NCBI RefSeq assembly: GCF_041248615.1
Contig: NZ_CP158426.1
Origin: Escherichia coli
GTDB lineage: Bacteria > Pseudomonadota > Gammaproteobacteria > Enterobacterales > Enterobacteriaceae
DNA length: 64,000 nucleotides
Direction: 5' to 3' (one strand)
In this document: positions 15,319 to 63,718 of the stretch, piece after piece
Numbering within the stretch: the stretch's first letter is position 1
Layout: each line of letters starts with the position of its first letter
Translations under genes and position numbers: made by a program
Notes under the pieces: generated by a model
What the model was told of the DNA's origin: nothing
Seen by the model: the letters and a program-made list of their open reading frames with translations, nothing else
The model's database searches: none

Positions 15319-15328
15319 TTCCGTTTCT

Positions 15329-17718: not shown

Positions 17719-17729
17719 CTTTCAGCTCC

Positions 17730-18005: not shown

Positions 18006-18008
18006 AGG

Positions 18009-18500
18009 TTACTCCTGCCTAATTAACTGAATATTTCGGGTAATTGCCGCTTCACGAGCCAGTGCGGTCACACAACATTTCCGCTGTAACACCAGTATTC
18101 CCGAGCTTAACTGTGCGATATCGGCATAACTTAAAAGTCGATCACGATGAAGGTAGATCGGTTGCCCTTGTTCGTCGCACCAGCTTAGCGGTAGACGGGC
18201 GAGAGTCTTCAATTCAATGGCGTTCAGGAAATGACGCTGCAACGACAATTGAATGTGCATTCCCCAGGCTAACGCTTCGTGTATCTGGATTGCTGCTCGA
18301 TCTGACGTTTCGTTCTCCGCAAGTTGTCGCAGCAGCGGCAGATCGACATATCGGATTTGTAATGACGCATACTGATGAACGCTCTCTTGAACGCTGGCGT
18401 CTCGCAGTTGAAAAACAGTCAGCACGAGTGCTTTTCTCGCACGTTGTTTAAGGCGAAAAACCACCTCGTCAACAATACGTTGCATCAGCATGTTATTCAT
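18009..18500 (-). CDS. pduM: microcompartment protein PduM
   Basis: 163-aa ORF in conserved position between pduL and pduN. Confidence 0.8.
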   Translation of the reverse strand: MNNMLMQRIVDEVVFRLKQRARKALVLTVFQLRDASVQESVHQYASLQIRYVDLPLLRQLAENETSDRAAIQIHEALAWGMHIQLSLQRHFLNAIELKTLARLPLSWCDEQGQPIYLHRDRLLSYADIAQLSSGILVLQRKCCVTALAREAAITRNIQLIRQE

Positions 18501-19129: not shown

Positions 19130-19131
19130 TG

Positions 19132-19554
19132 CTACTCCCCTCGCTTATTGGCGTACAGGCAAAGTGAGCGGGGCTCACCTTTTTGCCGCTGACATGCCGG
19201 GTCAAGACACAAATTACAACTGATAATCTCTGAGGTGACGGTTGTTGCTGGTGTTTTGCTTGTTTCAACCGTCACGGTCAATGCTTCAATTGTGTGGGGC
19301 AGAATGCCGTCTCCCGGGCGGGCAATCACTTTGTGTGCGACAAGGCCATTTCGCTGTCCGGCGAAACTGGCTCCCGTCGCGATCGCCGCATTAACCGAGG
19401 CGACGTCACCGGTGATTTTGATGAGCGTCCAGCCTGAGCCATTGGTCTTCTCAAGGCCAACCAGCGTGATGGACGCGGCTTTTGCCATAGCGTCTGCGCA
19501 ACTGATGGCGAGAGCCAGACCACTGACTTCAAGTAATCCCAGTGATTGCTTCAC
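19132..19554 (-). CDS. pduK: BMC shell protein PduK (BMC domain + Cys-rich C-terminal tail)
   Basis: 140-aa ORF; N-terminal BMC domain (LGLLEVSGLALAISCADAMAKAA) and C-terminal CNLCLDPAC motif. Confidence 0.85.
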   Translation of the reverse strand: MKQSLGLLEVSGLALAISCADAMAKAASITLVGLEKTNGSGWTLIKITGDVASVNAAIATGASFAGQRNGLVAHKVIARPGDGILPHTIEALTVTVETSKTPATTVTSEIISCNLCLDPACQRQKGEPRSLCLYANKRGE

Positions 19555-19577
19555 GCTGTGCTCCTTAGCGAATGGGG

Positions 19578-19853
19578 TTATGCTGATTTAGGTAAAATAG
19601 CCTCAACATCACTGTGTGGGCGCGGGATGACATGGCAGGATTTCACTTCGCCAACGGCGCTTGCGGCGGCGCTTCCTGCATCAACGGCGGCTTTTACTGC
19701 GCCAACATCGCCACGGACCATCACCGTAATCAGACCCGAACCAATCTTTTCATAGCCAACCAGCTGCACGTTGGCGGATTTAACCATGGCATCTGCAGCT
19801 TCAATTGCGCCAACTAACCCTTTTGTTTCAACCAGTCCTAGTGCGTTGTTCAT
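19578..19853 (-). CDS. pduJ: BMC shell protein PduJ
   Basis: 91-aa canonical BMC-H protein [29 protein letters not shown]... Confidence 0.9.
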
Positions 19854-19872
19854 ACTGCATTTCTCCTGTGGA

Positions 19873-20223
19873 TTATGAGTGGAGTTCCCGGAAGGGAATC
19901 CCTTTTACCAGGCGGGCAGCGTTAGAGCCAATGCTGCGCCGGGCATGGTTATCTTGTTGATACATCAGCGTAAACAGTGGCGCTGATGCCGGTAAGTTTT
20001 TGTAATGCACAATCAGTTTTTCCTGATCGCAGGCAATGCCAACCAACAGGGGAGATTGACTAGCAGCCAGCCAGGCGCTATCGATAACTTCACCTGACGG
20101 AATGTGTTGAATGCGAAAGGGAATACCTTCCTCTTCAATGCCAAGAAGCACCTCATCCCATATAGTGATGCAGTTACCGATCTCCATGACGACGATGGCT
20201 GGTGCACGCTCTTTACTTTCCAT
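19873..20223 (-). CDS. pduH: diol dehydratase reactivase small subunit PduH
   Basis: 116-aa ORF overlapping pduG stop; conserved position. Confidence 0.85.
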
Positions 20224-22045
20224 GAATCGACTCCTTGTGCCAGGCGATGAGTAGCCCAGTAGCTACCGCGTTGCGCGGACCTTCGCTACCACGGATATTC
20301 CCCCGTCCGGCGACCAATCGATAATGCGCCAATGCATCGGTGACTAACTGCGGTACTTCGAAATCCAGCGAAGAACCGCCCACCAGAACGACGAACGGAA
20401 TATCGCGAATATTTCCGGCAGGGCTTACCTGACGTAGCGCGCGCAGGGCATTGGTTACGAAGACACGCTCTTTCGCACTGCGGCGGACAGCGCGTACTTT
20501 TTCCAGCGTCAAATCACCGGGAATGGGCACCAGTTCGTCGGGTTTCACTACACAGACGCGGGCAAATACATGGGGGGATAGGGGAGTAGGGAAGAACTGA
20601 ACGCTGCCATCTTCATGGCGTAAGTGGAACAGGCTTTCTACTTTTGCCAACGGGTACTTTTTGATTTCTTCTGCCAGATAACGATCATTTAAGCCCAGCT
20701 CACGAGCGATAATCATCGTTACCATGTCGCCCGCTCCCGCAAGGTGAGTGGCAACAATTTCTCCTTTCTGATTGATGATGGAGGCATCGGTAGAGCCTGC
20801 ACCTAAGTCCAGAATTGCCAGTGGACGTGTGGTTCCAGGGGTAGTCAAGGCCCCCTGAATGGCGGCTTCTGCTTCTGCGCCTCCGACCTGAACATCAACA
20901 TGCAGTTTTTGCTTAATTTCACTGGCGATCATTGCCATTTGCAGACGGTCGGATTTCACCATAGAGGCAATACCCACAGCCTGTTCCAGTGAAAATTCAC
21001 CTGCCAGACCGCCGGTTACGCTGACGGGGACAGAGGTATCTATCGCCAGCAAATCCTGAATAAAAATTTCGTTGCTGGGTTTGTTGGTCAGTTCCGCCAT
21101 GGTCTGGCGAACATGTTCCAGCATTCCGCCGATGTTGGTGCCTGGTTTTCCCGTCACGTTTTCCAGTTTTGGGCACTCACCGACCGCTTTCATAATGGCA
21201 TCGGCACCAGCAGCTACATCAACGCGCGTTGTGCGCCCGGCAGAAAGCAGTTCGATATTTCCGGCGGGTATCGAACGGGCTTTAACGTCGCCAGAAGGCG
21301 TTTTCACTACCACTGCTGAACGGTTGCCGATTAGCGCCCGCGCGACAGGAACAATATTTTTAGTCTCTTCAGCATTGAGGGCGAAAACGGTGGCAATCCC
21401 ATACGGGTTAGACAGGGTTTCGATAACTTTCCCGGGAACGGCAACTTCAATTGCAGCCAGCATGCCGAGCGGAATACGATCGATGTAGAGGACTTCATCA
21501 ACAATAGGTACAGCAATTTCCAGGCGGTTACTGACCAGCACGCCATCGTCGCGTTGCAGAATAACGCCAGTCAGCTGATATCCGGCACGTACGGAGGCGT
21601 TTATCATCGTCGCGATATCGGCAAAATCAAATGCCGATGACACCACCAGGATGTAAGGTGTGTCCGCCGGGCGTGTTAATAACTCTTGCGGAGTGATGGT
21701 GAGCCCTACGCCCAGCCCCACTCCGCCCGGAGTTTTCGGGTTGTGACCGATCATGGTTGATTCAGTGATGATGGTTTCAGTGATGGTTTCCATCGCCACA
21801 TCACCAATGACCGGAGTTGCTTCGTTGATACGAATAAGCGAAATATCGCTAACATTGATGCCGACTTTTTTCGTTGCCTGTGCGAGCGCCTCCTGAATAC
21901 CATGGACGTTACGCAACGTACCTTTAATTCCGGTGGTTTCCGCCAGGGCGCTACTCACGAACGACAACTCTCCAGTTGCACTGAGCGTTGCCAGCGCAAC
22001 CTCTGTTGATGAGTTGCCGATATCAATGCCTGCTATATATCGCAT
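20213..22045 (-). CDS. pduG: diol dehydratase reactivase large subunit PduG
   Basis: 610-aa ORF MRYIAGIDIGNSSTEVALA... (ASKHA/actin-like ATPase N-terminus). Confidence 0.9.
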   Translation of the reverse strand: MRYIAGIDIGNSSTEVALATLSATGELSFVSSALAETTGIKGTLRNVHGIQEALAQATKKVGINVSDISLIRINEATPVIGDVAMETITETIITESTMIGHNPKTPGGVGLGVGLTITPQELLTRPADTPYILVVSSAFDFADIATMINASVRAGYQLTGVILQRDDGVLVSNRLEIAVPIVDEVLYIDRIPLGMLAAIEVAVPGKVIETLSNPYGIATVFALNAEETKNIVPVARALIGNRSAVVVKTPSGDVKARSIPAGNIELLSAGRTTRVDVAAGADAIMKAVGECPKLENVTGKPGTNIGGMLEHVRQTMAELTNKPSNEIFIQDLLAIDTSVPVSVTGGLAGEFSLEQAVGIASMVKSDRLQMAMIASEIKQKLHVDVQVGGAEAEAAIQGALTTPGTTRPLAILDLGAGSTDASIINQKGEIVATHLAGAGDMVTMIIARELGLNDRYLAEEIKKYPLAKVESLFHLRHEDGSVQFFPTPLSPHVFARVCVVKPDELVPIPGDLTLEKVRAVRRSAKERVFVTNALRALRQVSPAGNIRDIPFVVLVGGSSLDFEVPQLVTDALAHYRLVAGRGNIRGSEGPRNAVATGLLIAWHKESIHGK

Positions 22046-22054
22046 AGTTCGTCC

Positions 22055-22573
22055 TTAATCGTCGCCTTTCAGTTTTTTGCGCTCGACATAAAGTTCCGCA
22101 GCTTCACGGACAAATGCAGCACAAATTTTGGCCTGATAACGCCGTTCAAGATCGTCAGCAATGGCAATAAGTTCTTGCTTAGTCGAACGATAAGGGCGTA
22201 ACGCATTGTAGATTTCGAGGATGCGATCATCCGGTACTGAGGTAAGCTCAGCGGCGCGTTCAAAATTCATCGCCAGGCGATCGCGACCAGCATCTCTGGC
22301 AATCGCGGCCTGAATACGCAATGTTTCAGGGGTTATACGCATATCCTGGGCGGTGACGTTATCGCTGAGTACATTTTCCAGAGTGAAATCGTCGAGCGTT
22401 TTATTGGTCGCCGTTTTAACCCATTCCGGATGTTTATTTGCCAGCGGATAATCCGTCACTTTGGCGCTCTGTATTGACGCGTTGGGTGCCGCAGAAACAG
22501 GAGCTGCATCCTGTAAACTGTTCATGCGATTCAACACGTCCCTGACCATCGACTCAATTGCATCGGTATTCAT
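22055..22573 (-). CDS. pduE: propanediol dehydratase small (gamma) subunit PduE
   Basis: 172-aa ORF in conserved order after pduD. Confidence 0.88.
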   Translation of the reverse strand: MNTDAIESMVRDVLNRMNSLQDAAPVSAAPNASIQSAKVTDYPLANKHPEWVKTATNKTLDDFTLENVLSDNVTAQDMRITPETLRIQAAIARDAGRDRLAMNFERAAELTSVPDDRILEIYNALRPYRSTKQELIAIADDLERRYQAKICAAFVREAAELYVERKKLKGDD

Positions 22574-22587
22574 GAAGGTTTCCTTTG

Positions 22588-23256
22588 TTAAAACGTCACG
22601 CGCAGTTCTTGCGGTTTTTTGCCAGTGACCACGTACTTCGTCTCTTTAATATGCAAAATGGCAGATTTGGCCTGGTATTTCGGCCGCGCCATTTGATCGT
22701 TGAGGGTCGGCACCGGTTGTGGAGACTCACGCTTTGCATAACGCGCGGCGTTTTTGCCAATCTGACGATAAGTTTCCAGCGTCAACAAAGGCGCTTGTGG
22801 GAATAGTTCCAGGTTAGACAAGGGAGGAAGACCTTGCTGGTGGATAACCGTTGTGCCTTTCGACTGAATACCGATAGCAATACCTGAACCACTAAGACGA
22901 TCGCCTTCGACTGCTACGAATGCGACATCGGACGATTTAAAGCAGCGAATCACACGGGCTTTAATGCCTTCTTCTTCGATACCAGCAATCACTTCGCGCA
23001 AGATGTTTTTATGCGGAATACCGATGATATTGACGGTTTGCGCCAGGCCGAACGCCGGGCCTACAGCAATAATGACTTCATCTTGCTGAGTGCCTTGTTG
23101 GGCTTCGCCAATTTCGGCCAGAAAAGTTCCGGTATCTGGCGCGGAAGAGACAGTTGCACAGGCAGGTGCGCGAAATGAAACGGGCTTGTCGCTGGTTTGC
23201 ATTTCTGCCAGCACGTCTTCGATAATCTGACGCAGTAATTTTTCGTTAATTTCCAT
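22588..23256 (-). CDS. pduD: propanediol dehydratase medium (beta) subunit PduD
   Basis: 222-aa ORF in conserved order after pduC. Confidence 0.88.
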
Positions 23257-23265
23257 TTCTCACCC

Positions 23266-24930
23266 TTAGTCAATTTCGTTGGGATCAAGTGCACCGGGAA
23301 TATTTTTGATCTCTTCCCAGCGTTCCCCTTGCAGGCGGTAACCTGTAGCCGGTCCGGCGTAATCATTGACGTCATTGACCGCAGAGAGCACTTGTCCGTC
23401 ATCGACGATGATGGCTGAGGTATGGAGATAATCGCCGGTCAGTTTTGCTTTTTGCATGTTGAGCATGTCTTGGGCGACATCGGTAAAACCGCCTTGCGCC
23501 AGGGCTTTCACCACTTCCAGGCTGTTCCGGTTTTTATTGATAATCTCCTGGGCGAACTTGATGTCTTCCACAATATTGCGCTCAGGCATATCTTTTGAAC
23601 CGTGGGCATAGGTTGCCGCTTCGACTTCTTCATCGGTAATAGGCGGTAGTCCCATACCGGCAAAGACAGCCTGTAAAGCGCGAGCGGCTTTATTGCGGAT
23701 AGCGATAACATCTTCTTCGCGTACTGGTCGCAGGCCGCCATCAACCTTCAGGTCACGCTGAATGACGTTGTAATCATCGAAGTCTTCAGCATCTTCGTTT
23801 GAACCAGCAAACATGTTGTCGTAGTTCGGCACAGCGGAAAAACCGGAAGAGATAAAGTCGGTACCTGGCAGAAACTGCATCAGGAAACGTGCGGTACGGC
23901 GCATATCCGAGTGGGTAAAGGTCTGGTCATTACTGGAGGCGCATTCCAGATCCAGCGATGAGCAAATTAAGTTTTCCGCTAATACTGCGCGGATGCCTGA
24001 TGGCACAGCCGATGGAACACCGATGCAGCTTACCGAACCATTCTGTAGACCCTGAACTCCTGCGGCTTTGGTGATGTAAATGCAACGAGCCTCGAGATAA
24101 AGCATTGATTTGCCTTCCGCGTAACCCATCTGTACTTCAGAGCCGGAGCCGGAAGTAAAGCGCATTTTTAAGCCGCGAGACGCATAGGATGACGCGAGAA
24201 ATCCTTTTGACCACGGGGTGTCATCGCCATCGGTGAAAACAGGTTCTGTACCATAGACAGAAATTGTTTCGGCGTAACAGGTGTGGCCTAACATACCGAG
24301 TTTCAGTTCGGTGGCTTCTTCCAGTGAACACTGGGTCAAGACGCCCGGACGTCCCACCTGTGAGCCGACCAGCAGGGCGATGGCGTTGAACGGGGCATAG
24401 CGAGCAACGGCAACGGTGGTTTCCTGTTCATCAAACCCGCGCCATGCGCCTTCAGCTGCGTCGGCGGCAATTTGTACCGGGTTATCTTTGACGTTGGTGA
24501 CGTGAGCCTGTTGTGATGGTGTTCGACGGGCGCGCATTTTCTGCATCGCCATCATCATCTCTACCACGTTCATCTGCGAAACAACTTCGACGATTTTTGC
24601 AGGCGTCATTGCTGTGGTAAGGGGAACGATATCGCTACGTTTGACATTTGGATCGCACAACATATTGGCAAGTTTTACCGAATCCATCGCGATGACTTCT
24701 TCTGCACGCGCGAGATTGATGCCGTAGCGGGCGATAAAGTGGTCGATCAGGTCAAACTGGCTGGCGGGTTTTCCATCCAGTTCGGTAACGACGCCGTTAA
24801 CAATTTTGATTGACGGTTTAGGATCGTTCGGGCTTTCCATCGCAATGAAGCCTTCTTCAATCCACTCTTTAACGAAACCGTCCTGGTTGACCGGGCGTTT
24901 TGCCAGTGCTTCAAATCTTTTCGATCTCAT
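23266..24930 (-). CDS. pduC: coenzyme B12-dependent propanediol dehydratase large (alpha) subunit PduC
   Basis: 554-aa ORF MRSKRFEALAKRPVNQDGFVKEWIEEGFIAMESPNDPKPSIK... Confidence 0.92.
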   Translation of the reverse strand: MRSKRFEALAKRPVNQDGFVKEWIEEGFIAMESPNDPKPSIKIVNGVVTELDGKPASQFDLIDHFIARYGINLARAEEVIAMDSVKLANMLCDPNVKRSDIVPLTTAMTPAKIVEVVSQMNVVEMMMAMQKMRARRTPSQQAHVTNVKDNPVQIAADAAEGAWRGFDEQETTVAVARYAPFNAIALLVGSQVGRPGVLTQCSLEEATELKLGMLGHTCYAETISVYGTEPVFTDGDDTPWSKGFLASSYASRGLKMRFTSGSGSEVQMGYAEGKSMLYLEARCIYITKAAGVQGLQNGSVSCIGVPSAVPSGIRAVLAENLICSSLDLECASSNDQTFTHSDMRRTARFLMQFLPGTDFISSGFSAVPNYDNMFAGSNEDAEDFDDYNVIQRDLKVDGGLRPVREEDVIAIRNKAARALQAVFAGMGLPPITDEEVEAATYAHGSKDMPERNIVEDIKFAQEIINKNRNSLEVVKALAQGGFTDVAQDMLNMQKAKLTGDYLHTSAIIVDDGQVLSAVNDVNDYAGPATGYRLQGERWEEIKNIPGALDPNEID

Positions 24931-24948
24931 AAATCTGCCTCAGAGAAT

Positions 24949-25761
24949 TCAGATGTAGGAAGGGCGATCGTTTTTCGGTGTATCGCCGAGAGTCGAAAGC
25001 ACGGTTTTACCGATTTCGCGTGCGGAGATGACCGCCTGGCGGACTGCGCCGGAGTCACCCGAGATAATCAGAATGACTTCATTGCTGTAGCTGGTGCCTT
25101 GAGCGGGGGAGCTGTATGCCACAACATCCACATTGGCGGACTTCAGCGCGGTGTCTGCCATCAGAACACCCACAGCAGCCGGAGCGCCGACAATAACGCC
25201 GCAAGCCCGTCCCAATGGTGCACCAAACGCTTTTTCCAGTGCATAGCTGGCGCGGGCGGTATATTGCAGCTCAAGATGTCCGGCTTCGTTGGCATAGACA
25301 TCGCCAAAGGTTCGATCGAGTTCTTTCAGGGCAACTTCAATACCGCGTTTCACGTCGGAAACATCGTTGCCACCTAAGAGGATCAATGAGCCGTGTCCGG
25401 CACCGCCTTTAGTATCGCGAGGAAGTTCAATGCTAATAACTTCAGTGTTGGTGGCTTTTACCGCTTCATCAGCGGCCATAATGTGTGGACCTGCGCCAAT
25501 ACGCGCACCCAGAATGCCAATGGAACGATAGCGTTTTTCAAGTTTCATTGCGTCCAACAGGGCGCTATCAACGTTCGCAATGACCAGACCTACAGTGTCG
25601 CCAATAGCGGTGCCAACAAATTCTGTTAATGTGCAGCTTTTTTCTGCCATAGCCGTCTCTCGTATTTGATGAGTGGTTTTCGGGAGAACCTCATGCTCTG
25701 GCGTCGCTACGCGAGCGATGACCTGCGCCATGATCTGTTCGACCAGTTCATTGCTGCTCAT
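24949..25761 (-). CDS. pduB: BMC shell protein PduB (tandem BMC; internal start at Met38 would give PduB')
   Basis: 270-aa ORF; second in-frame Met 37 codons in matches the known PduB/PduB' arrangement. Confidence 0.9.
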
Positions 25762-35609: not shown

Positions 35610-37097
35610 ATGTGGTTTCACTTTCTGCAATTAAGGTCGGCTTTGAATATCTCCTCTGCTTTACGCCAGGTTGTTCACGGCACTCGCTGGCACGCTAAAC
35701 GCAAGAGCTACAAAGTGTTGTTCTGGCGCGAGATAACCCCGCTTGCTGTTCCTATCTTCATGGAGAACGCCTGTGTCCTGTTGATGGGTGTCCTGAGCAC
35801 TTTTCTGGTCAGCTGGCTGGGAAAAGATGCGATGGCCGGCGTGGGATTGGCGGACAGCTTCAATATGGTCATTATGGCATTTTTTGCGGCTATCGATCTT
35901 GGTACCACTGTCGTTGTGGCATTTAGTCTCGGTAAGCGGGATCGACGACGAGCGAGGGTGGCGACGCGGCAGTCATTGGTGATCATGACGTTGTTTGCCG
36001 TGCTGTTGGCAACGCTTATTCATCATTTTGGCGAACAAATTATTGATTTCGTTGCGGGTGATGCCACGACAGAAGTTAAAGCACTGGCGTTGACTTATCT
36101 GGAGCTGACGGTACTTAGTTATCCAGCAGCTGCCATCACTTTGATTGGTAGCGGGGCACTTCGTGGTGCAGGGAATACGAAAATACCGCTACTGATTAAC
36201 GGTAGCCTGAATATTCTTAATATTATTATTAGCGGCATATTGATTTACGGCCTTTTCTCCTGGCCGGGACTGGGATTTGTCGGGGCTGGGTTGGGGTTAA
36301 CCATTTCTCGTTATATTGGCGCAGTGGCAATTTTGTGGGTGCTGGCGATTGGTTTTAATCCTGCGCTAAGGATTTCGTTAAAGAGCTATTTTAAACCGCT
36401 GAATTTTAGCATTATCTGGGAAGTCATGGGGATTGGTATTCCAGCAAGTGTCGAATCAGTATTATTTACCAGTGGTCGGTTATTAACCCAAATGTTCGTT
36501 GCCGGGATGGGGACCAGTGTTATTGCCGGAAATTTTATCGCGTTTTCAATTGCGGCTCTTATCAACTTACCCGGAAGTGCGCTCGGCTCTGCTTCTACGA
36601 TCATTACAGGCCGAAGGTTGGGAGTAGGGCAGATAGCGCAAGCAGAGATTCAGTTGCGGCATGTGTTCTGGCTGTCCACTCTTGGATTAACGGCCATCGC
36701 CTGGCTAACGGCTCCCTTTGCCGGGGTTATGGCATCGTTTTACACCCAGGATCCACAGGTTAAACATGTCGTTGTGATTCTGATTTGGCTAAATGCTTTA
36801 TTTATGCCTATTTGGTCTGCCTCATGGGTGCTACCCGCTGGATTTAAGGGTGCTCGCGATGCACGTTACGCCATGTGGGTTTCTATGTTGAGCATGTGGG
36901 GTTGCCGGGTTGTAGTCGGTTATGTGCTGGGAATCATGCTTGGCTGGGGTGTGGTTGGTGTCTGGATGGGAATGTTTGCCGACTGGGCTGTGCGGGCCGT
37001 GCTGTTTTACTGGCGAATGGTTACTGGACGTTGGCTGTGGAAATATCCTCGATCTGAGCCGCAAAAGTGTGAAAAAAAGCCAATTGTGTCGGAATAA
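35610..37097 (+). CDS. yeeO: MATE-family efflux transporter
   Basis: 495 codons from MWFHFLQLRSALN (ORF track start 35457 lies on top of asnU); 12-TM-like hydrophobic profile. Confidence 0.82.
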   Translation: MWFHFLQLRSALNISSALRQVVHGTRWHAKRKSYKVLFWREITPLAVPIFMENACVLLMGVLSTFLVSWLGKDAMAGVGLADSFNMVIMAFFAAIDLGTTVVVAFSLGKRDRRRARVATRQSLVIMTLFAVLLATLIHHFGEQIIDFVAGDATTEVKALALTYLELTVLSYPAAAITLIGSGALRGAGNTKIPLLINGSLNILNIIISGILIYGLFSWPGLGFVGAGLGLTISRYIGAVAILWVLAIGFNPALRISLKSYFKPLNFSIIWEVMGIGIPASVESVLFTSGRLLTQMFVAGMGTSVIAGNFIAFSIAALINLPGSALGSASTIITGRRLGVGQIAQAEIQLRHVFWLSTLGLTAIAWLTAPFAGVMASFYTQDPQVKHVVVILIWLNALFMPIWSASWVLPAGFKGARDARYAMWVSMLSMWGCRVVVGYVLGIMLGWGVVGVWMGMFADWAVRAVLFYWRMVTGRWLWKYPRSEPQKCEKKPIVSE

Positions 37098-37150
37098 ACG
37101 ACAAAGTGCAGATTATTTCAGCAAACGATTTCAAATTTAAAAAACAGGCT

Positions 37151-37179
37151 TTGACATTGTGGATGGGCATCGCTAATAT
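37151..37179 (+). promoter_or_regulatory. candidate sigma-70 promoter of asnW
   Basis: ttgaca-17 bp-taatat ending 19 nt upstream of mature tRNA 5' end. Confidence 0.5.
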
Positions 37180-37197
37180 TCGCCTCGTTCTCACGAT

Positions 37198-37273
37198 TCC
37201 TCTGTAGTTCAGTCGGTAGAACGGCGGACTGTTAATCCGTATGTCACTGGTTCGAGTCCAGTCAGAGGAGCCA
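37198..37273 (+). tRNA. asnW: tRNA-Asn (GUU); integration target of downstream island
   Basis: 76-nt sequence identical to asnU/asnV on plus strand. Confidence 0.95.
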
Positions 37274-37434
37274 AATTCAAGTTTTCATGCTTATCTGTAC
37301 GTCTCTATTTGTTTACGATTCAGTAAGTTAGCGTGAAAATCCTTCCCGGTGCGTATCTGGTTTTCTCTCTGTATCGGGATAATTTGGTGGTCAGATCTGG
37401 GGTCAGTTTGGTTCGATTCTGGAGTGACCCCCAA

Positions 37435-38696
37435 ATGTCTTTAAACGATTCTAAAATCCGCAAGTTAAAACCCTCTTCCCGTCTGGTAAAACTCTCCGAC
37501 TCTCACGGTCTGTATCTGCTCGTCAATCCGGGCGGTTCACGCATCTGGTATCTCAAATATCGTTTCAACGGAAAAGAATCCAGAGTCAGTCTTGGCGCAT
37601 ACCCGCTTGTCTCACTGGCAGAAGCCAGGCAACAGCGCGACGGTATCCGTAAGTTACTGGCGCAGAATATCAACCCGGCGCAGCAGCGCATGGCGGAGAA
37701 AGCGGCCTGCTCCCCTGAAAAGTGCTTTAAGGCAGTGGCGCTGGCCTGGCACAAAACCAACAAAAAATGGTCGGCTGATTATGCCGCCCGTATTCTCGCC
37801 AGTATGGAAAACCATATCTTCCCGGCGATTGGTCATCTGCCAGTTGCCACTCTTAAAACGCAGGATTTACTGCTTTGTTGCGGGTTATCGAGGATAAAGG
37901 CTTTCTGGAAGTCGCGTCCCGAACCCGGCAGCAACTCAGCAACATCATGTGCTATGCCGTTCAGCAGGGGCTTACCGAAAGCAATCCGGCGCAGCATCTG
38001 GATGGCGTTGTCGCCTCACCCGTAAAGAATCACTACCCCGCGTTACTGCTGGAGCGGTTGCCCGAACTGCTTGGCCGCATCGGTGACTATCAGCAGGGCC
38101 GGGAGTTAACACGGCTGGCGGTGGTGCTGACGTTGCACCTGTTTATCCGTTCCAGCGAACTGCGTTTCGCCCGCTGGAGCGAGATCGATTTCAGGCACAA
38201 AATCTGGACCATCCCCGCCACCCGCGAGGCAATCGACAAAGTACGGTTTTCGGGGCGTGGCGCAAAAATACGTACCCCGCATATCGTGCCGCTCTCCCGC
38301 CAGGCGATTGCCATTCTGAAACAGATACAGGAGCTTTCCGGCCATCTGGATCTGGTGTTTCCCGGTGATCATAACCCGTACAAGCCAATGAGTGAAAACA
38401 CCACCAACCGGGCGCTACGCCTGATGGGGTATGATACGAAAACTGAAATCTGCGGGCATGGACTCAGGGCGATGGCCTGTAGCGCCCTGGTGGAGTCGGA
38501 GCTGTGGTCACGCGATACGGTGGAGCGGCAAATGAGCCACCAGGAGCGTAACAGCGTGCGGGCAGCCTATGTGCATAAAGCGGAGCATCTGGAGGCCAGA
38601 AAGGCCATGATGCAGTGGTGGTCGGATTATCTGGATGTGTGCCGCGAGGGGTATGTTGCGCCGTACATTTATGCCCGGCAGCATAAGGCAGCCTGA
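37435..38696 (+). pseudogene. P4-type tyrosine integrase, interrupted by a frameshift near 37870
   Basis: N-terminus MSLNDSKIRKLKPSSRLVKLSDSHGLYLLVNPGGSRIWYLKYRFNGKESRVSLGAYP typical of P4-family integrases; reading frame changes between ORF 37333-38025 and ORF 37875-38696. Confidence 0.8.
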
Positions 38697-38849
38697 ATCA
38701 GAAATAACGGAAATCATTAAAAATGTAAAAGCAGATCCTGATTGACCGGGATCTGCTTATTGTATTGAGAAGTATTACCATTTTTCTGTTATTATCAATC
38801 GGAAAGTATCTAAAAATATTTGGCCCCAAATAATTTTGGTGAAAACCAA

Positions 38850-39270
38850 TCAATAAACCATTTATCAATAGGTAAGTACCGGAAATTATTCCAGTAGAAT
38901 ATTTTCAGGCGATTGCCTATTAATAAATACATTATTGATAGATAAGTGCCTTCTGTGATTTGTCCGCAAATCACAGAAGATGAAAACCTATCAATACGGG
39001 ATATTTTCACGGAAATACCAATTAATACTCCAGAATATCTCCTGACCATATACTCTGAAACCTGTAAGAACTGCATCAGATATTGAGAGACCATATAGAT
39101 ATAAGTCTGAAATTATTTTGTTTCCAATGATTTCAGGCGAAAACCTATCAATGCATCTGTTTTCAATAGGCAGCCACCTTCCGTGATTAACATGTTAATC
39201 ACGGAAGGTGAAAAGCTATCAATAATCGATATTTTCACGGAATTACCACTTAATACATCCCAAAAAATGC
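38850..39270. repeat. AT-rich array of ~110-bp imperfect direct repeat units, each containing a GTGATT-type palindrome
   Basis: Palindromes cttctgtgattt-gtccgc-aaatcacagaag (38950-38979) and ccttccgtgattaac-at-gttaatcacggaagg (39177-39208) with compensatory arm changes; flanking tatcaata and gatattttcacgg motifs repeated. Confidence 0.65.
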
Positions 39271-39852
39271 GCCATAAAATACCGGGCAATCTTTCCTGAT
39301 ACACATTATCACTGCACCAGCTATACAGAGACAAAATAATCTGCACCAGCCCCTGTAAATCGGTTATTTGTGCCAGTGTCCCGCCGCTCTACCTGTTCAG
39401 GGTTGTGCCAGTTTCTGGCCCTTTGGTTTTCGGCCCTTTCCGGTCAGGCGCTGTTACCCTTATTGCCCCTTAACCTTTATGACCCTTTCCCTTTCTGACG
39501 CAACCAGTTTATTTTGAAATGCTCCATGACAGTCTGCACCAGACTGTATTTTCACCACAGGATAACGATCACAAAGTGCAAAAAAATAACATGAAGCACC
39601 GAAGATTGTTAATCTATATGTAGCAGGTAATGATGTCAAAAACTGTCGCAGCATTTTTTATAAAATTATGAGACATTCTGTGGGCATATAATATATGTCA
39701 CAAGATGCAGGAAAACAAAGAGAGAGTTTTCAGATATAATCCCGCGTTAGAATTAATGTGATGCCCCGGTGAATTTACATTTTAAAATTTCCCTGTCCCG
39801 TAATATCGGTAAAAACGATTGAAACACCAACTATTAATCGGGAACGTCTCGA

Positions 39853-39871
39853 GTGATTACAGGGTAATCAC
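39853..39871. repeat. third GTGATTA palindrome
   Basis: gtgattac-agg-gtaatcac; same half-site as the two palindromes at 38950 and 39177. Confidence 0.55.
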
Positions 39872-40033
39872 TATAATATCCCGGCAAACTATATTGGTTA
39901 AGCAGGAGAATCTGATCAGTTGATATTTATTCGTCATGCTGTAACGATATTTTCACAATATAAACCCGTTCGCCCCCTGCGCCAGATCCGGTACAGAGGG
40001 TACGATAAATCGCTGTCGTTACGCAGTAACGTA

Positions 40034-40650
40034 CTATTTTGCGACATTCATGAATTCAGTCATTCCTCCCTCCAGCGGTAGCCGTACACCTGTTTCACCC
40101 AGCGACCGCGACCGTCGCCATGACCCAGATCCGTCGCCGTCAGCGCCAGTGACTCCTTTTCGCTGAATCCCTGCGCCAGTATCCAGGACTGTCGTATAAC
40201 GGGGACGCCCGCCTTTGGTGCCAAATACCACTTTTAGCCGGGTTTCACCGCGGGAAATGGCTTTCAGCCACGTTTTCAGCGACTGTGAACTCTGTACCGC
40301 CTCCTGCGAACGCAGCCCCATCAGCCGCGCAATCTCCAGGCTGCTGCCAGCCCTGCGTCCTGAGTACGGGCTTTCTCCATCACCTGCCTGCGTCCAGCCT
40401 GTCTCAGCACGGCCCGCAACGCTGCCATTTCGTTTTGCAACGTTCGTAAACCAATATCCAGCTCCAGCCGTTCCTCAATGTAGCATTCGATATGGCGAAC
40501 CTTGATCTGCTCCACCCGCTGGATCTGGATATTCAGCGCCCGTAAATGTTCACTGAACCGTTTTGTAATATGGATACGGTCATTCACCGTTTTGAAGCTG
40601 CCGCCCGCTTTCTTCGCCAGCGCCTTCATTTCACTGCTTAATTTACTCAT
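40034..40650 (-). pseudogene. tyrosine recombinase-like remnant (frameshifted, truncated)
   Basis: ORF 40321-40650 resembles integrase N-terminal SAM-like core-binding domain; adjacent ORF 40034-40321 in another frame carries a GTKGGRPR segment; total too short for an intact recombinase. Confidence 0.4.
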
Positions 40651-41566: not shown

Positions 41567-41755
41567 TCAGATAATTTCCGGTGATGTTTCCAGCGCATCC
41601 GCAATCAGTTTTTCGCCGCGCGGCCTGGAGCGGGTCAGCGCATTTGCCAGCGTGGAAGACGCCAGCCCGGCCCTGCGGGAAACCTCAGCCAGCGATGTTC
41701 CCTTTTTTCTCAGGCCCGCGATAATATCGGCGGGGTGCCAGTCGGGTTGCATCAT
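41567..41755 (-). CDS. Ner/Nlp-like HTH DNA-binding protein (short form)
   Basis: 62-aa ORF with DWHPADIIAGLRKKGTSLAEVSRRAGLASSTLANAL, close to the Ner/Nlp (SfsB) signature. Confidence 0.7.
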   Translation of the reverse strand: MMQPDWHPADIIAGLRKKGTSLAEVSRRAGLASSTLANALTRSRPRGEKLIADALETSPEII

Positions 41756-42213
41756 GCTGGCCTCCCGTCGATAACCTGTATGCCGTCAGCAGTACATATC
41801 CAGCGTGGGGCGTTCAGATTGGCGGCAAAATACCAGACCAGTTCGCACAGCAGCCCGGTCAGCGTGGTTTCGGTTTCCGGCAGCAGCACGTGGCCGTTCA
41901 GTATCTGCGTCAGCGCCAGGCAGTAATCGCAGAGTGATCCTGCATCAGGCTCAAAACCGGGTGAAACATCGGGAAGATCATTCGTAATAAACCCGTCAAT
42001 CAGATGTGGTGGGATCGGCTCGTTCAGCGTGGGCCGCAACAGTGCAAGACAGGTATTAAGCCTGCCACAGAGCGCCGTTTTCAGCGCCGGATCGCAGCAC
42101 TCGATGAGCGTTGTGGCAACGCGATCGCAGTACTCCGCCAGATCGGTGAAATCGGTAGCGGCACTAAAGGGAACAGCAAGTAAATTGCATTCAGAGGTGA
42201 GAGTAGTCGCCAT
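41752..42213 (-). CDS. hypothetical Cys-rich protein (153 aa), translationally coupled to Ner-like gene
   Basis: ORF overlaps downstream Ner-like start by 4 nt (ATGA); 9 Cys; no recognisable family. Confidence 0.45.
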   Translation of the reverse strand: MATTLTSECNLLAVPFSAATDFTDLAEYCDRVATTLIECCDPALKTALCGRLNTCLALLRPTLNEPIPPHLIDGFITNDLPDVSPGFEPDAGSLCDYCLALTQILNGHVLLPETETTLTGLLCELVWYFAANLNAPRWICTADGIQVIDGRPA

Positions 42214-42734
42214 AAGGCCGTCTACAGTGAGTGATAAATATTCCAGCCACTGGAGAGGCTAATCTCACGGGTGGTGGAACCGGACGGGGTTAGCCTTACC
42301 AGCCTCACTGACACTGGCGCGTCTTTCGACGCCCCCGCCCGATCCCGCCATTGAGATGAGACCGTGCGCGACACACAAATATTGTATCGTCAGTGAGGAT
42401 CTTCAGGAGGCTAATCCCGACGCCTGATTTTGCAGGCGCGGCGCAACAATACAATGTTCGGTAATTTTCAGCAAGAGGTTTAGCGGAAGCAGACGCACAG
42501 GAAAATACAATCACGCGATAAATATTAAATACAATTATATTTATATAAAATATATATTGAGCAATATGCAGACACTTTCCAGTAAATATCCTGTCAGTTA
42601 ATTCGTCCCGTTGATATCAGTCAAAAAAATAAATGTAAAAAGAGCGTATTTCGTTTCATACAGTAACGTTATTTATCATTTTGTCCGGTGTCGCCAGCAT
42701 CAGGCCAGATGAACCATAAAAAAGGATATCAGCG

Positions 42735-45700
42735 ATGAGCGGAAAACCGGCAGCACGTCAGGGCGATGCCACAATGAAAGGTGGCCCGATAGTCCAGGGG
42801 TCGGCAGGCGTGAGGATTGGCGCGCCAACCGGCGTGGCCTGTTCAGTGTGCCCCGGCGGATTCACTTCCGGTAACCCGGTGAATCCGCTGCTCGGTGCAA
42901 AAGTACAGCCCGGCGAAACCGATTTCGCGCTGCCCGGCCCGTTACCGTTCGTGCTCTCCCGCACCTACAGCAGCTACCGGACGAAAACCCCTGCGCCCGT
43001 CGGTATCTTCGGTCCTGGCTGGAAAGCACCCTTTGATATCCGCTTACAGATACGCGATAACGAACTGATACTCAATGATAACGGTGGCAGAAGCATTCAT
43101 TTTGAGCACCTGTTTCCCGGTGAGGATGGCTTCAGCCGCAGCGAATTATTCTGGCTGGTGCGCGGCGGCGTGGCGAAACTGAATGAAAGTCACCGTCTTG
43201 CCCCACTCTGGCAGGCTCTGCCGGAAGAACTCCGCATGAGTCCGCATATTTATCTGGCGACGAACAGTCCGCAGGGGCCGTGGTGGATACTCGGCTGGAG
43301 TGAGCGGGTACCGGGTGTGGATGAGGTGCTGCCTGCGCCATTGCCGCCGTACCGGGTGCTGACCGGCCTGGTGGACCGCTTCGGGCGTACCCTGACCTTC
43401 CGGCGTGAGGCAGTTGGCGAATTTACCGGGGAAATCACCGGCGTGACCGATGGCGCAGGCCGTCAGTTCCGCCTGGTGCTGACCACGCAGGCGCAGCGGG
43501 CGGAAGAGGCCCAGCAGCAGGCGGTTGCAGCCGGAGCAAAACGACCAGATATCCCGGTTTCATTGCCGGACTATACAGAATATGGCCGGGATAACGGCAT
43601 CCGCCTGTCAGCGGTGTGGCTGACGCATGACCCGGAATACCCGGAGAATTTACCTGCCGCGCCACTGGTGCGCTACGACTGGACGCCACGCGGTGAACTG
43701 GCGGCGGTGTATGACCGCAGCGGTACGCAGATGCGCCACTTTACTTACGATGATAAATACCGGGGCCGGATGGTGGCGCACCGTTACGCAGGCAGGCCGG
43801 AGATGCGTTACCGCTACGACGACATCGGGCGCGTGACGGAACAACGTAATCCGGCGGGTTTAAGCTACACCTATCAGTATGAGAAAAACCGCATCATCAT
43901 CACCGACAGCCTGAACCGGTGCGAGGTGCTGCATACAGAAGGCGAAGCCGGGCTGAAACGGGTGGTGAAAAAAGAGCACGCTGACGACAGCGTCACACAG
44001 AGTCAGTTCGATTCCATTGGCCGCCTTCAGTCACAGACGGATGCGGCAGGCCGGACGACAGAATACAGTCCGAATGTGGTGACGGGTCTCGTCACACGCA
44101 TCACCACGCCGGACGGCAGGAAATCGGAATTTTACTATAACAACCAGAACCAGTTAACCTCAGCATCCGGGCCTGACGGACTGGAAATGCGCAGGAAATA
44201 TGATGAGTACGGGCGTCTGACGCAGGAAACCGCTCGCAACGGCGATATCACCCGCTACAGTTATGATAATCCGCACAGTGAATTACCCTCTGCAACTGAA
44301 GATGCGACGGGTAGCCGCAAGCAGATGACGTGGAGCCGTTACGGGCAGTTACTGACTTTCACCGACTGCTCAGGCTACCAGACCCGTTATGAATACGACC
44401 GCTTTGGTCAGATGACGGCGGTCCACCGTGAGGAAGGTGTCAGTCTTTACCGCAGCTATGACAGCCGTGGTCAGTTAATCTCGGTGAAAGATACGCAGGG
44501 CCGTGAAACGCAGTATGAGTACAACGGTGCAGGCGACCTGACCGCCATTATCACGCCAGACGACAACAGAAGCGAGACACAGTACGATGCGTGGGGAAAG
44601 GCCGTCAGTACCACGCAGGGCGGGCTGACGCGCAGCATGGAATACGACGTTGCCGGACGTGTCATCAGCCTGACCAACGAGAACGGCTGTCACAGCGACT
44701 TCAGTTACGATGTGCTCGACCGCCTGATACAGCAGAGCGGCTTTGACGGGCGGACGCAACGTTACCGTTACGACCTGACCGGGAAACTCACGCAGAACGA
44801 GGATGAGGGGCTTGTCACCCTCTGGCACTACGACGAATCGGACCGTATCACACACCGCACGGTGAACGGCGAACCGGCAGAGCAGTGGCGGTATAACGCC
44901 CACGGCTGGCTGAAAGAAATCAGCCACCTGAGCGAAGGTCACCGGGTGGCGGTGCATTACGGCTATAACCGTAAGGGACGTCTCACCGGCGAGCGCCAGA
45001 CGGTGCATAACCCGGAGACGGGGGAACTGCTCTGGCTGCATGAGACAAAACACGCCTACAACGAACAGGGTCTGGCAAACCGCGTCACGCCGGACTGCCT
45101 GCCTGCTGTGGAGTGGCTGACCTACGGCAGCGGTTACCTGGCGGGGATGAAGCTGGGCGACACGCCGCTGCTGGAGTACGCGCGCGACCGCCTGCACAGA
45201 GAAACGGTGCGCAGCTTTGGCAGCATGGCAGGCAGTAATGCCGCATACGAACTGACCAGCACATACACCCCCGCAGGCCAGTTACAGAGCCAGCACCTGA
45301 ACAGCCTGGTGTATGACCGTGACTATGGGTGGAATGACAACGGCGACCTGGTGCGCATCAGCGGCCCGCGACAGACGCGGGAATACGGCTACAGCGCCAC
45401 GGGCAGGCTGGCGAGTGTGCGCACCCTCGCACCGGACCTGGACATCCGCATCCCGTATGCCACGGACCCGGCGGGCAACCGGCTGCCGGACCCGGAGCTG
45501 CACCCGGACAGTACACTCACAGTGTGGCCGGATAACCGCATCGCGGAGGATGCGCACTATGTCTACCGCCACGATGAATACGGCAGGCTGACGGAGAAGA
45601 CGGACCGCATCCCGGCGGGTGTGATACGGACGGACGACGAGCGGACCCACCACTACCACTACGACAGCCAGCACCGCCTGGTGTTCTACACGCGGATACA

Positions 45701-46916
45701 GCATGGAGAGCCACTGGTCGAGAGCCGCTACCTCTACGACCCGCTGGGACGGCGAATGGCGAAAAGGGTATGGCGGCGGGAGCGTGACCTGACGGGGTGG
45801 ATGTCGCTGTCGCGTAAACCGGAGGAGACATGGTACGGGTGGGACGGCGACAGGCTGACGACGGTGCAGACTGACACCACGCGTATCCAGACGGTGTACC
45901 AGCCGGGAAGCTTCACGCCGCTCATCAGAATCGAAACAGACGTGACCGAACTGGAGAAAGCGCAGCGGCGAAGCCTGGCGGAGAAGTTACAGCAGGAAGG
46001 GAGTAAAGATGGTCACGGCGTGGTGTTCCCGCCTGAACTGGTGCGGCTGCTGGACAGGCTGGAGGGGGAAATCCGGGCAGACCGTGTGAGTGACGAAAGC
46101 CGGGCGTGGCTTGCGCAGTGCGGGCTGACGGTGGAGCGGCTGGCGGCACAGATCGAGCCAGTTTATTTGCCTGAGCGAAAAATACATCTTTATCACTGCG
46201 ACCACCGGGGACTGCCGCTGGCGCTTATCAGTACTGAAGGTGCAACGGAATGGCGTGGGGAGTATGACGAGTGGGGGAATCAGCTTAATGAGGAGAACCC
46301 GCATCATCTGTTCCAGCCATACCGCCTGCCGGGGCAGCAGTACGATGATGAATCGGGGCTGTGCTATAATCGTTATCGTTACTACGAGCCGTTACAAGGG
46401 AGGTATATTACACAGGACCCGATTGGGTTAAATGGGGGGTGGAATTTATATAAATATCCGCTGAATCCAATAAATTATGCAGATCCTCTTGGCTTAGCCG
46501 TAGATATAAACCACTTCCCAGTCAACGAAGACATACGAAATTATGCAGAGAAAGTTTGGAATAATCCTAATATCATTACAATTGGAACACATGGTGATCC
46601 TCAATCAGTATATGATGAAAATTATAATAAGATAGATGTCAAGACATTAGCTAATGAGGTTCGAAATCATCCTAAATTTAAACCTGGAATGTCAGTAAGA
46701 CTGTTATCCTGTAATACAGGAAAAGGAAATAACTCTTTTGCACAGCAATTGGCAGATGAACTAGGTGTGAGAGTCTATGCTCCTGACCAATATGACTGGT
46801 ACTATTCAAATGGTAAGGTAGAGCCTTGGGGAGGATTCTATGATGCAAACAATCAATTGCAAATGGACACGAATCAGCCTGGACATGAGTTTACATTCAA
46901 GCGAAGGAAACCATAG
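42735..46916 (+). CDS. rhs: Rhs-family polymorphic toxin (PAAR-like N-terminus, YD-repeat core, divergent C-terminal domain)
   Basis: 1393-aa ORF; N-terminus [11 protein letters not shown]...[26 protein letters not shown] like E. coli RhsA-C; many YDxxGR repeats; DPIGL...DPLGL core/toxin boundary motif. Confidence 0.9.
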
Positions 46917-46918: not shown

Positions 46919-47521
46919 ATGAGGTATTTTCTCTTTATATTTATAACAATCCCCCTTATCTCTGGAGGTCATATGAGTAATGATAGCGAAAAGATAATAT
47001 CAACATATTCGCTCAATTTTTTATCACCAGATGATGTGAGGAAAGAAGAACTTAAGGCATCACAAGGTGATAGTGATGCTGCATTTAAATTGTACAAATA
47101 TTACCTTTTTTGCGAGCCAAAATCATACAGAAAACAGCACGAATGGTTAATAATATCGGCAAATAATGGAAATGCTATAGCTCAATATAACTTATCAAGA
47201 GAACTTGAGTCAGAAGGAAAAGTAGATGAATCAATACAATGGCTGAAAAAATCAGCGGAACATGGTAATAATTATGCACAATATCAGATGTCAAAATATT
47301 TATTAAAAATAGGTGATATTAGAGGATCGGAATATTATCTAAACTTATCTGCGGATAACGGATGTGTATTTGCAATAAAAGATATTATCAAAAATATGAT
47401 GGATAGTGGAAGGTACGATGACGCCCTCATTTGGGTTGAAAAATTGAAAAAATTGTATCCTGACACAAATACCGAACTTTACATACAAAAAATAACGCAG
47501 AAAAAAAAGCAATCCAAATAA
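46919..47521 (+). CDS. putative Rhs immunity protein (Sel1-like repeat protein)
   Basis: ORF starts 3 nt after rhs stop; low GC like the rhs C-terminal region; Sel1-like repeats; stronger SD (ggagg) precedes internal ATG at 46970, so true start may be there. Confidence 0.6.
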   Translation: MRYFLFIFITIPLISGGHMSNDSEKIISTYSLNFLSPDDVRKEELKASQGDSDAAFKLYKYYLFCEPKSYRKQHEWLIISANNGNAIAQYNLSRELESEGKVDESIQWLKKSAEHGNNYAQYQMSKYLLKIGDIRGSEYYLNLSADNGCVFAIKDIIKNMMDSGRYDDALIWVEKLKKLYPDTNTELYIQKITQKKKQSK

Positions 47522-47808
47522 TAATTATATATAATTACTCGCACAGAGTTACAGTATTGCAAGAAATATATCTAGCATATAAAGTCGCCGCCAGTAAAGA
47601 TAAAGTACTGTGTAATCCTTCCTCCCATATAGGGGTAAAAACTTAGCATCCAGTGCCCTCGACTTAATTTTTAGTATTTTCTCTGTGAAGTGACACTTCG
47701 TAGGATTCAGTTCATGTTTACCAGAAAAAAGGTGGTCATTCTGGTGGTCTTGACAATCTCGATTTTTTGTTTTAGCTTTCCAATCAGCCAATTAATGGCT
47801 ACGGCGAT

Positions 47809-47828
47809 CCCAGTCAGAGGAGCCAAAT
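47809..47828 (+). repeat. island-distal direct repeat (attR-type copy of asnW 3' end)
   Basis: ccagtcagaggagccaaatt identical to tRNA 3' end at 37258-37277. Confidence 0.8.
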
Positions 47829-48276
47829 TTTAGTTTTGAGACATCTCTATGAGTCTCAAGACAGTTAAAAAATAAAAATTATTTTTACCCGGTTACCTTG
47901 TAAAAAAGTGACCGGGTTTTTTGATTTCTGTGTTTCGTGCGCTTAATCGAGTCTCACGCTTCAGTGAGCAAATTGCCCCCCAACAGACATCACGATTCGC
48001 AAGGTCAAAAACTTCGTTCCGTGAAGTACCGTACAAAGGTATAGAGAAAAATACCTTATGCTGGATGTCGCTGTCGCGTTTTTATCGGGAAACTATGCGT
48101 AATTGCCACTTTGCCTTCTGTAATCAGAAAAAGAAGAACTGGAATTTTAATAAATATTATTTCTCTGGGAATGGGGATTTTTTATAATCAATATGACGAG
48201 TTGAACATTATATTTTTATAATGATTATATGAGATTAAAGAAATCTGCCATAAAGACAGATTTCTTTAAAATATAA

Positions 48277-48993
48277 TTAGAGATTTGCGACGTTATGATA
48301 AACTTTTTGTACATCGTCGTCATCTTCAAGGGCATCAACAAGCCCTTCAAAGATTTCTAAATCTTCTGGGGAAAGCTCAACTTCAGATTGAGCAATCATT
48401 TCTAATTCTGTTGTTGAGAACTCAGTGATTCCAGCTGCTTTTAGAGCCGCGATTCCTTTATGAAGGTCAGTAGGTTCAGTATAAATAACAATATTACCTT
48501 CTTCTTCAGTTACATCACGAACATCAACTTCAGCTTCAAGTAAAATTTCAAAAATATGGTCAGGGTCTGTTCCTTTAAATACAATCACACCCGTATTGTC
48601 AAACATATAGCTGACAGAACCTGCCGCTCCGATATTGCCGCCTTTTTTATTGAAAATTGTGCGAACGTTAGCAATCGTACGGTTAACATTGGAAGTCAAG
48701 GTCTCAGCGATAATCATTGAGCCATTAGGACCAAAGCCTTCATAACGGCCCTGCACGAACGTTTCATCTCCGCCGCCTTTGGCTTTATCAATTGCTTTAT
48801 CAATAACATGCTTTGGAACTTGTGCCTGCTTTGCTCGTTCAATAACGAATTTTAAAGATGTGTTTAATTCTGGATCGGGTTCACCTTGTTTGGCAGCGGC
48901 ATAGATTTCTACACCGAATTTTGCATAAATTTTAGACGTCGCACCGTCTTTAGCCGTTTTTTTAGCAACAATATTGGCCCATTTACGTCCCAC
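48277..48993 (-). CDS. yeeN: YebC/PmpR-family transcriptional regulator
   Basis: 238-aa [45 protein letters not shown]... Confidence 0.9.
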
Positions 48994-49335
48994 TGGAATG
49001 ATCTCCTCGAAAATTTATTTACATTACTGGTAAATCGTTAACATGTGTTAATTCGGCATATTATATCATAACAGGAAAAATCTCGTCTATTAGAAATAAA
49101 AATATTCTAAAGTCATAATCTTATATTTAATTTCATAAAAAATTATATTGTTGGCGGGATTTTTTATAATTGTGTTTTGAAAGCATACTTGCTTTTAATA
49201 TGTGGGAATTATTAAGACGATAATAAAACTCGCATCTGTCCAAGAAAGCAAACAGCCCGCGTTTATTGCAGGCTATTTGCCAGATGTCTTACTTACTCCT
49301 TCACATCTATTTCTGATAAGAAGGTTCAGAACTTA

Positions 49336-53836: not shown

Positions 53837-61802
<7,966 letters not shown>

Positions 61803-62101: not shown

Positions 62102-62121
62102 AATTTTTAGAATTTGGCTCC
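62102..62121 (-). repeat. inverted partial copy of tRNA-Asn 3' end (distal att repeat of a second asn-tRNA island)
   Basis: aatttggctcctctgactgg is the reverse complement of ccagtcagaggagccaaatt; no tRNA body follows. Confidence 0.75.
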
Positions 62122-62479
62122 TCTGACTGGGATCGCCGTAGCCAATAACTGGCTAATAAATAAGCTAAACCTGAATTTCCTTTCTGTCAAGACCACCAAA
62201 CAGACCACCTTAAGTTATACATGTCATTCTGACCTGCTCTCAGTTGATTAGTACACCCTGAAATTAGTAATGTCATTCATATGACCCTGACCCCAAACCC
62301 TGCTCCATTCAGAAACAGAATTCCGGCATGATACATACTCCCCCTGAACCGAGGTGGTACTGATGAAAAAAATCTCGATTCACCGAAGAGCATATTGTGT
62401 TTGCCTTGACGCAGAAGTTACCAGCATGACTCAACTTCAGCCGACTCAACCACTATCCCAAACCTCTAGGATCAGAAAC

Positions 62480-63718
<1,239 letters not shown>

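Follow-up and report, generated by a model that had tools for sequence, protein, structure and literature searches.

Does the loss of one base from an island-borne integrase gene immobilise the island? The question is raised by a locus in a 64,000-nucleotide stretch of Escherichia coli DNA (the window, hereafter the whole stretch at its full length), for which an initial annotation had claimed that a reading-frame change near position 37870 splits a P4-type integrase of about 420 codons and that this change, together with a recombinase remnant at 40034-40650, suggests the island is immobilised. The region is a 100% match to the chromosome of E. coli NRZ14408 (NZ_LT599825.1), and positions in the window equal positions in that record minus 2,019,671.

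An integrase pseudogene at the head of a 10.55-kb islet at asnW

The genes of the region are arranged in the order pdu/cob genes, ldtA, asnV, nac, cbl, asnU, yeeO, tRNA-Asn, island, yeeN, amn, shiA and yeeJ. (Note that yeeJ, which encodes a large Ig-like adhesin at 53837-61877 on the minus strand, is split into two ORFs of 818 and 1702 aa and is called a frameshifted pseudogene by PGAP.) The integration target is a tRNA-Asn (GTT) gene at 37198..37273 on the plus strand, called by ARAGORN, Rfam tRNA and PGAP; it lies between yeeO and yeeN and is referred to here as asnW, following the naming in PMC8209727. A promoter scan places a sigma-70-like promoter of the tRNA gene at 37151-37179. The 3' end of the tRNA gene plus one nucleotide makes up a 17-bp direct repeat, CCAGTCAGAGGAGCCAA, that constitutes the attL core (37258..37274, plus strand), and a perfect second copy constitutes the attR core (47810..47826, plus strand). 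The two ends agree at 17/17 bp, at 20/20 bp when extended, and at 26/28 bp across 37258-37285, when only 0.08 chance matches to the 17-bp repeat are expected in the whole window. Moreover, the empty asnW site of strain TUM9812 (yeeO-asnW-yeeN) matches 36962-37285 and picks up again at 47810-49069. Because the 17-bp repeats bound the islet and the TUM9812 empty site rejoins at the same place, the asnW islet measures 10,552 bp from repeat to repeat. It thus has the insertion at a tRNA 3' end and the direct repeat at the far boundary by which tRNA-associated genomic islands are recognised, and, as with genomic islands in general, it is absent elsewhere, leaving a clean empty site in TUM9812.

The integrase pseudogene heads this 10.55-kb islet at 37435..38696 on the plus strand, and comprises 420 codons once repaired. 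Frame 1 is open from the ATG at 37435 to a stop at 38023-38025 (196 codons), and frame 3 is open from 37857 to a stop at 38694-38696. When the window gene was aligned with two intact alleles, WP_000055685.1 and WP_000055678.1, exactly one gap was found in both alignments: a C is missing at 37868..37869 (plus strand) from codon 145, which is TTC in intact alleles and falls in the middle of the core-binding domain. The context of the lesion is GATTT[C]ACT, with no homopolymer run at the site. (The intact references were the 1263-nt homologue of an O145:H28 strain, which is 94.9% identical, and the nearest allele, that of strain 1190 and of O166:H15 strains, which is 99.4% identical.) The nearest allele, WP_000055678.1, heads the same islet at the same locus; it differs from the window allele in having the codon-145 C and in lacking P17L, E89K and R173C. 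These three nonsynonymous substitutions are accompanied by three synonymous ones, which is too few to interpret in terms of relaxed selection on the integrase.

Translation from the native start (37435..38025, plus strand) would give a 196-aa product made up of native residues 1-144 followed by 52 out-of-frame residues; all of the arm-binding domain but only half of the central one is kept, and the product is without catalytic residues. These reside in the frame-3 continuation (residues 146-420; 37857..38696, plus strand), which is unlinked from the start codon and holds R239 (in IRSSE), H342-x-x-R345 (in HGLR), H369 and Y379, a set that is conserved in an intact paralogue at asnT; K278 is a candidate for the catalytic Lys, assigned by position only. 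In the repaired 420-aa protein we recognised Arm-DNA-bind_3 (DUF4102; PF13356; residues 3-87, E 1.9e-24), Phage_int_M (PF22022; residues 98-191) and Phage_integrase (PF00589; residues 225-384). In the real sequence the codon-145 frameshift cuts the central domain, and the arm-binding domain is still encoded because it lies upstream of the frameshift. A search of NCBIfam returned a below-cutoff generic integrase domain and nothing else. A terminator-like hairpin follows directly past the integrase stop codon (38729..38758, plus strand).

The repaired protein is 49.5% identical to the Int protein of phage P4 (X51522 / NC_001609) over residues 1-412, or 98% of its length (tblastn, E 1e-126). The two share the arm-binding, central and catalytic domains of tyrosine recombinases, as well as a tRNA 3' end as the insertion target and a short core that is duplicated on insertion, although P4 targets leuX whereas the islet integrase targets asn tRNA genes. 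Unlike P4, the islet is not a phage, is without P4 satellite genes, and has a pseudogene for an integrase: the single uninterrupted frame of an active P4-family recombinase is broken by a stop after 196 codons. Judged by its sequence, then, the window gene is a pseudogene member of the P4-family tyrosine integrases, and the reading frames, the alignments to intact alleles, the domains and the identity to P4 Int all bear out the frame change that had been claimed near 37870. The frameshift is already known to public annotation, RefSeq/PGAP listing the gene (2057106-2058367 of the record) as a pseudogene, "tyrosine-type recombinase/integrase; frameshifted", and the phenomenon itself is textbook.

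The missing base in other genomes

In a survey based on 5,426 complete E. coli genomes, an allele at least 99% identical to that of the window was present in 67. The best 48 of these 67 are gap-free matches of 1262 nt with 99.5-100% identity, and their carriers come from pigs, chickens, cattle, a swan, wastewater and humans, from many countries and from different laboratories. The next 12 among the matches listed are 99.4% identical and are all 1263 nt in length; two of the 12 were inspected, and both are annotated as intact and lie at asnW. By extension, about 19 of the 67 carriers hold the intact allele. PGAP calls the integrase frameshifted in NRZ14408 and in all of the sister genomes inspected.

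The frameshifted allele was accompanied by an intact pdu operon upstream in each of the three backgrounds where this was inspected (the pdu span of the window being 12309-25761), and in both of the genomes inspected that carry the intact, 99.4% identical allele deletion has left only a pduV remnant of the pdu operon. The alleles are thus markers of two chromosomal backgrounds, one pdu-positive and the other pdu-deleted. That the site is not a homopolymer, that the allele is shared, and that it occurs in a pdu-positive background fit a single event, and these observations together point to one ancestral deletion that was inherited by one clade.

Single-base indels are the commonest assembly error, and the initial annotation had itself raised the prospect that the frameshift is an error of sequencing, in which case the gene would be intact in the cell. 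We exclude such an error, and give an artefact of sequencing or assembly practically no credence, since the same 1262-nt allele is common to 48 complete genomes that were sequenced and assembled independently and the site is not a homopolymer; furthermore, three frameshifted copies that we compared base by base differ by substitutions only, with no gaps. Could the cell nonetheless obtain a functional integrase from the interrupted gene, either by programmed ribosomal frameshifting or as a split enzyme? The shift needed is indeed -1, and at the head of the downstream frame there is a TTG (37875) with an AGGA upstream of it at a 9-nt spacing, which could in principle start a separate C-terminal polypeptide of 273 aa. 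Against this, the 166-nt overlap of the two frames (37857-38022) contains no slippery heptamer of the form X XXY YYZ, and all close homologues are single uninterrupted ORFs, which argues against conservation of the frameshift. A split enzyme is in turn unlikely to retain activity, because the break falls within the core-binding domain. With the slippery site absent and the homologues in one piece, we reject programmed frameshifting and a split enzyme as vanishingly improbable.

Decay elsewhere in the islet and in its sisters

Downstream of the integrase pseudogene the asnW islet contains, in order, an AT-rich gap, the remnant of a second recombinase gene, a 52-aa ORF, an HTH_35 gene, a 153-aa ORF, an Rhs gene and a TPR gene; there are no transfer genes. 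The remnant, reported initially at 40034-40650, proved on comparison to be a gene of the Phage_int_SAM_2 plus Integrase_1 family at 40063..40650 on the minus strand that has suffered two deletions and a frameshift. Relative to the intact 294-aa protein WP_000041051.1, in which both Phage_int_SAM_2 (PF12834, N-terminal) and Integrase_1 (PF12835, catalytic) are present, it lacks residues 90-122 (a 33-codon deletion), is frameshifted near 40340, and lacks residues 194-255 (a 62-codon deletion that removes the H-x-x-R region), such that the 40063-40650 copy does not contain PF12834 and PF12835 in complete form. Both of the genomes inspected that have an intact P4-type integrase already carry the second recombinase as a pseudogene, and in one of them, strain 1190, it has the frameshift and the larger deletion. 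Thus, the second recombinase died before the P4-type integrase did, and its decay therefore adds nothing to the argument for immobilisation and is silent on the consequence of the frameshift. The remaining deletion, of 99 bp, is specific to the lineage of the window, the strain 1190/O166:H15 copy having kept those 99 bp; in the window it coincides with a 13-bp overlap of two alignment blocks at 40375-40387, and the sequence suggests a deletion between short direct repeats. The second recombinase gene is directly preceded by an EFASI RNA (RF02957; 40706..40833, minus strand; 100.8 bits against a gathering score of 51.2), which looks intact beside the dead gene it adjoins.

Two further genes form a backbone module at 41567..42213 on the minus strand, namely the 153-aa ORF (41752-42213), which matches no family, and a gene for a Ner-like HTH_35 regulator (41567-41755). 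A member of the C4 antisense RNA family (RF01695, 62.2 bits) lies directly upstream of the 153-aa ORF at 42267..42355 (minus strand), and the three together resemble an immunity or regulatory module of a phage, here on an islet that is not one. With Pfam and PHROGs we recognised no excisionase or recombination directionality factor (RDF) in the islet, their only results there being the Ner-like HTH_35 repressor and ORFs that belong to no family. As cargo the islet carries a gene for a 1393-aa RHS core protein (42735..46916, plus strand) with DUF6531, RHS repeats and the RHS core; after DPLGL (residues 1250-1254) comes a variable C-terminal tip of about 140 aa. Immediately downstream is a gene for a TPR protein (46919..47521, plus strand; PGAP start at 46973), and its position suggests that the TPR protein is the putative immunity partner of the Rhs toxin.

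The AT-rich gap that follows the integrase gene (38697-40062; 1.36 kb, 38% GC) is unannotated, and no Rfam family matched within it. It contains a 131-nt direct repeat, the copies of which (38898-39028 and 39126-39256) are 73% identical. A palindrome lies at the centre of each copy, and between the copies the changes in one arm of the palindrome are compensated in the other (CTTCTGTGATTTG/CAAATCACAGAAG versus CTTCCGTGATTAAC/GTTAATCACGGAAG). Conservation of the gap in sister islets is about 90-93%, which is no higher than that of the coding parts.

Related islets with a backbone that is 91-95% identical occur at three asn tRNA genes (asnT, asnU and asnW). The sister islet at asnT of an O145:H28 strain has an intact integrase gene, whereas in the asnT sister islets of TUM9812 and HCP6S3_I1 the integrase gene has been killed by an internal stop (positions 15001-16263 of locus L003, with the stop at codon 177, and 5151-6413 of locus L012). 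At asnU of TUM9757 both recombinase genes are intact, but the Rhs and HTH genes are frameshifted (positions 5150-15534 of locus L011). Because sister islets have lost the integrase independently, its inactivation is a recurrent form of decay. On the evidence of these sequences, members of the islet family have in the past changed from one asn locus to another, and different genes decay in different lineages, each independently. Independent gene decay is the usual fate of small tRNA-associated islands. In the literature we found nothing specific to the asnW Rhs islet itself, the matching work being on pks/HPI and ROD21-like islands only.

Those asn-tRNA islands (HPI at asnT, pks at asnW/U/V, ICEEc1/ICEKp1 and the ROD21-like EARL) use the same four identical asn targets as the islet. 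They are likewise flanked by a direct repeat of 17 bp, and their integrase gene likewise lies directly after the tRNA gene and so is read from the tRNA side (PMC8209727; PMC6035254). By contrast, the islet integrase gene has only about 72% nucleotide identity to those in HPI/pks-type strains, and the cargo of the islet is an Rhs element rather than siderophore, colibactin or T4SS genes. The HPI of E. coli is considered immobile because its distal repeat has been deleted (PMC8209727); the asnW islet is the opposite case, with its repeats intact and its integrase broken.

Autonomous mobility and excision in trans

The best explanation of these findings, in which we have high confidence, is that a one-base deletion ended the autonomous mobility of the islet and left a fixed Rhs locus in one clade. 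In this scheme, the islet entered asnW at its 3' end through a P4-family tyrosine integrase, with duplication of the 17-bp core, and a single C was lost from codon 145 in one clade of E. coli. The native start would from then on yield the 196-aa product, with its intact arm-binding domain, half core-binding domain and 52-aa nonsense tail; the islet would be unable to catalyse its own excision or re-integration, and would be inherited vertically as a fixed Rhs toxin/immunity locus. Because the product from the native start is without R239, H342, R345, H369 and Y379, its own excision and re-integration are presumably lost; we infer the loss of recombinase activity from the domain architecture and from the established mechanism of tyrosine recombinases.

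Whether the islet has become immobile is a different matter, for an integrase could act on it from elsewhere in the same chromosome. The asn tRNA gene asnT carries an integrative conjugative element (ICE) of about 51.7 kb (record 2081785-2133602) that runs off the right end of the window (window 62114-64000), with the 17-bp core of its distal end at 62114..62130 on the minus strand. It encodes a VirB-type T4SS, MobC, an AlpA-family regulator, an "ABC-three component system" with an AAA ATPase, and UbiD/UbiX, as well as an intact P4-type integrase of 423 aa. (A frameshifted IS3 transposase gene lies in this end of the ICE, at about 62488-63640.) Conceivably, this paralogous integrase excises and integrates the islet in trans, autonomy being lost and mobility kept. 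The integrase, WP_172408808.1 (2132094-2133365 of the record), adjoins asnT 75 kb from the islet and is 72% identical to WP_000055678.1 (which stood in for the islet integrase in this comparison, the two being 3 substitutions apart), the arm-binding domains agreeing at 61/85 residues and the catalytic domains at 124/160. Islet and ICE have an identical 17-bp core at each of their ends, and the 14 bp beside the distal core are also the same in the two elements. Both distal arms contain a pair of GGTGGTC motifs, at 47731..47749 (plus strand; 12 bp apart) in the islet and at 62191-62209 in the ICE, and the tRNA-proximal arms, identical at 139/190 positions, share one further GGTGGTC (37386..37392, plus strand, in the islet); we regard these motifs as putative arm-type sites. 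Any of the identical asn genes can serve as target for the P4-type integrases of asn-tRNA islands (PMC8209727), and cross-talk, in which the integrase of one island substitutes for that of another, has been reported in E. coli 536 (Hochhut 2006, as cited in PMC7545054). With a compatible integrase, an identical core, common arm motifs and reported cross-talk, excision in trans appears plausible. However, most island integrases of strain 536 act on their own island only (PMC7545054), we recognised no directionality factor in the islet using Pfam and PHROGs, and the frameshifted islet was at asnW only across all of the genomes inspected. On balance, we consider mobility in trans to be an unlikely alternative.

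A second alternative is that loss of the integrase was selected, "grounding" a useful Rhs toxin/immunity pair in the chromosome. Grounding has been put forward for Aux3, a truncated T6SS module of pandemic Vibrio cholerae and an effector island with reduced recombination that provides a precedent (PMC7721734), and in the asnW islet the cargo genes are intact, both recombinases are dead, and the allele is fixed in about 48 genomes from several hosts. Drift or hitch-hiking would, however, be equally expected to fix an allele in one clade. Moreover, the Rhs gene of the TUM9757 sister islet is frameshifted even though both of its recombinase genes are intact, which argues that decay strikes cargo and integrase alike. 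Selected loss is accordingly somewhat more doubtful still than mobility in trans, and we infer that neutral decay, not selection, lies behind the loss of the integrase. The parallel with Aux3 (PMC7721734) is nonetheless close in several respects: both are small att-flanked effector/immunity islands that originated from a mobile element, that have reduced site-specific recombination, in the islet by prediction, and that are retained clade-wide. Aux3 differs in that it keeps its integrase and has lost its RDF, whereas in the asnW islet the integrase itself is frameshifted.

Returning to the loss of autonomous mobility, the conclusion that the island is immobilised stands only in part. Self-catalysed excision would be lost, there being no catalytic domain in the product from the native start; yet neither att repeat is damaged and a compatible paralogue lies 75 kb away, for which reason the integrase pseudogene alone is insufficient for the term "immobilised", and the recombinase remnant is uninformative on the point. 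What the sequence records is routine island decay, with self-mobility lost but not necessarily all mobility.

There is also a far-fetched possibility that the truncated product, with its complete arm-binding domain, is retained to bind DNA at the GGTGGTC arm sites of the islet and of the asnT ICE, and thereby modulates the ICE integrase in a trans-dominant manner; we would be surprised if this were so. If it were true, a dead integrase would have found a second use in keeping a T4SS element and an Rhs islet where they are.

For the frameshift itself, the significance beyond annotation is small, and consists of the exact lesion, the boundaries of the 10.55-kb asnW Rhs islet, and the use of the lesion as a clade marker. 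For the family of islets at asnT, asnU and asnW, the repeated and independent loss of the integrase constitutes a natural series for the fixation of small effector islets.
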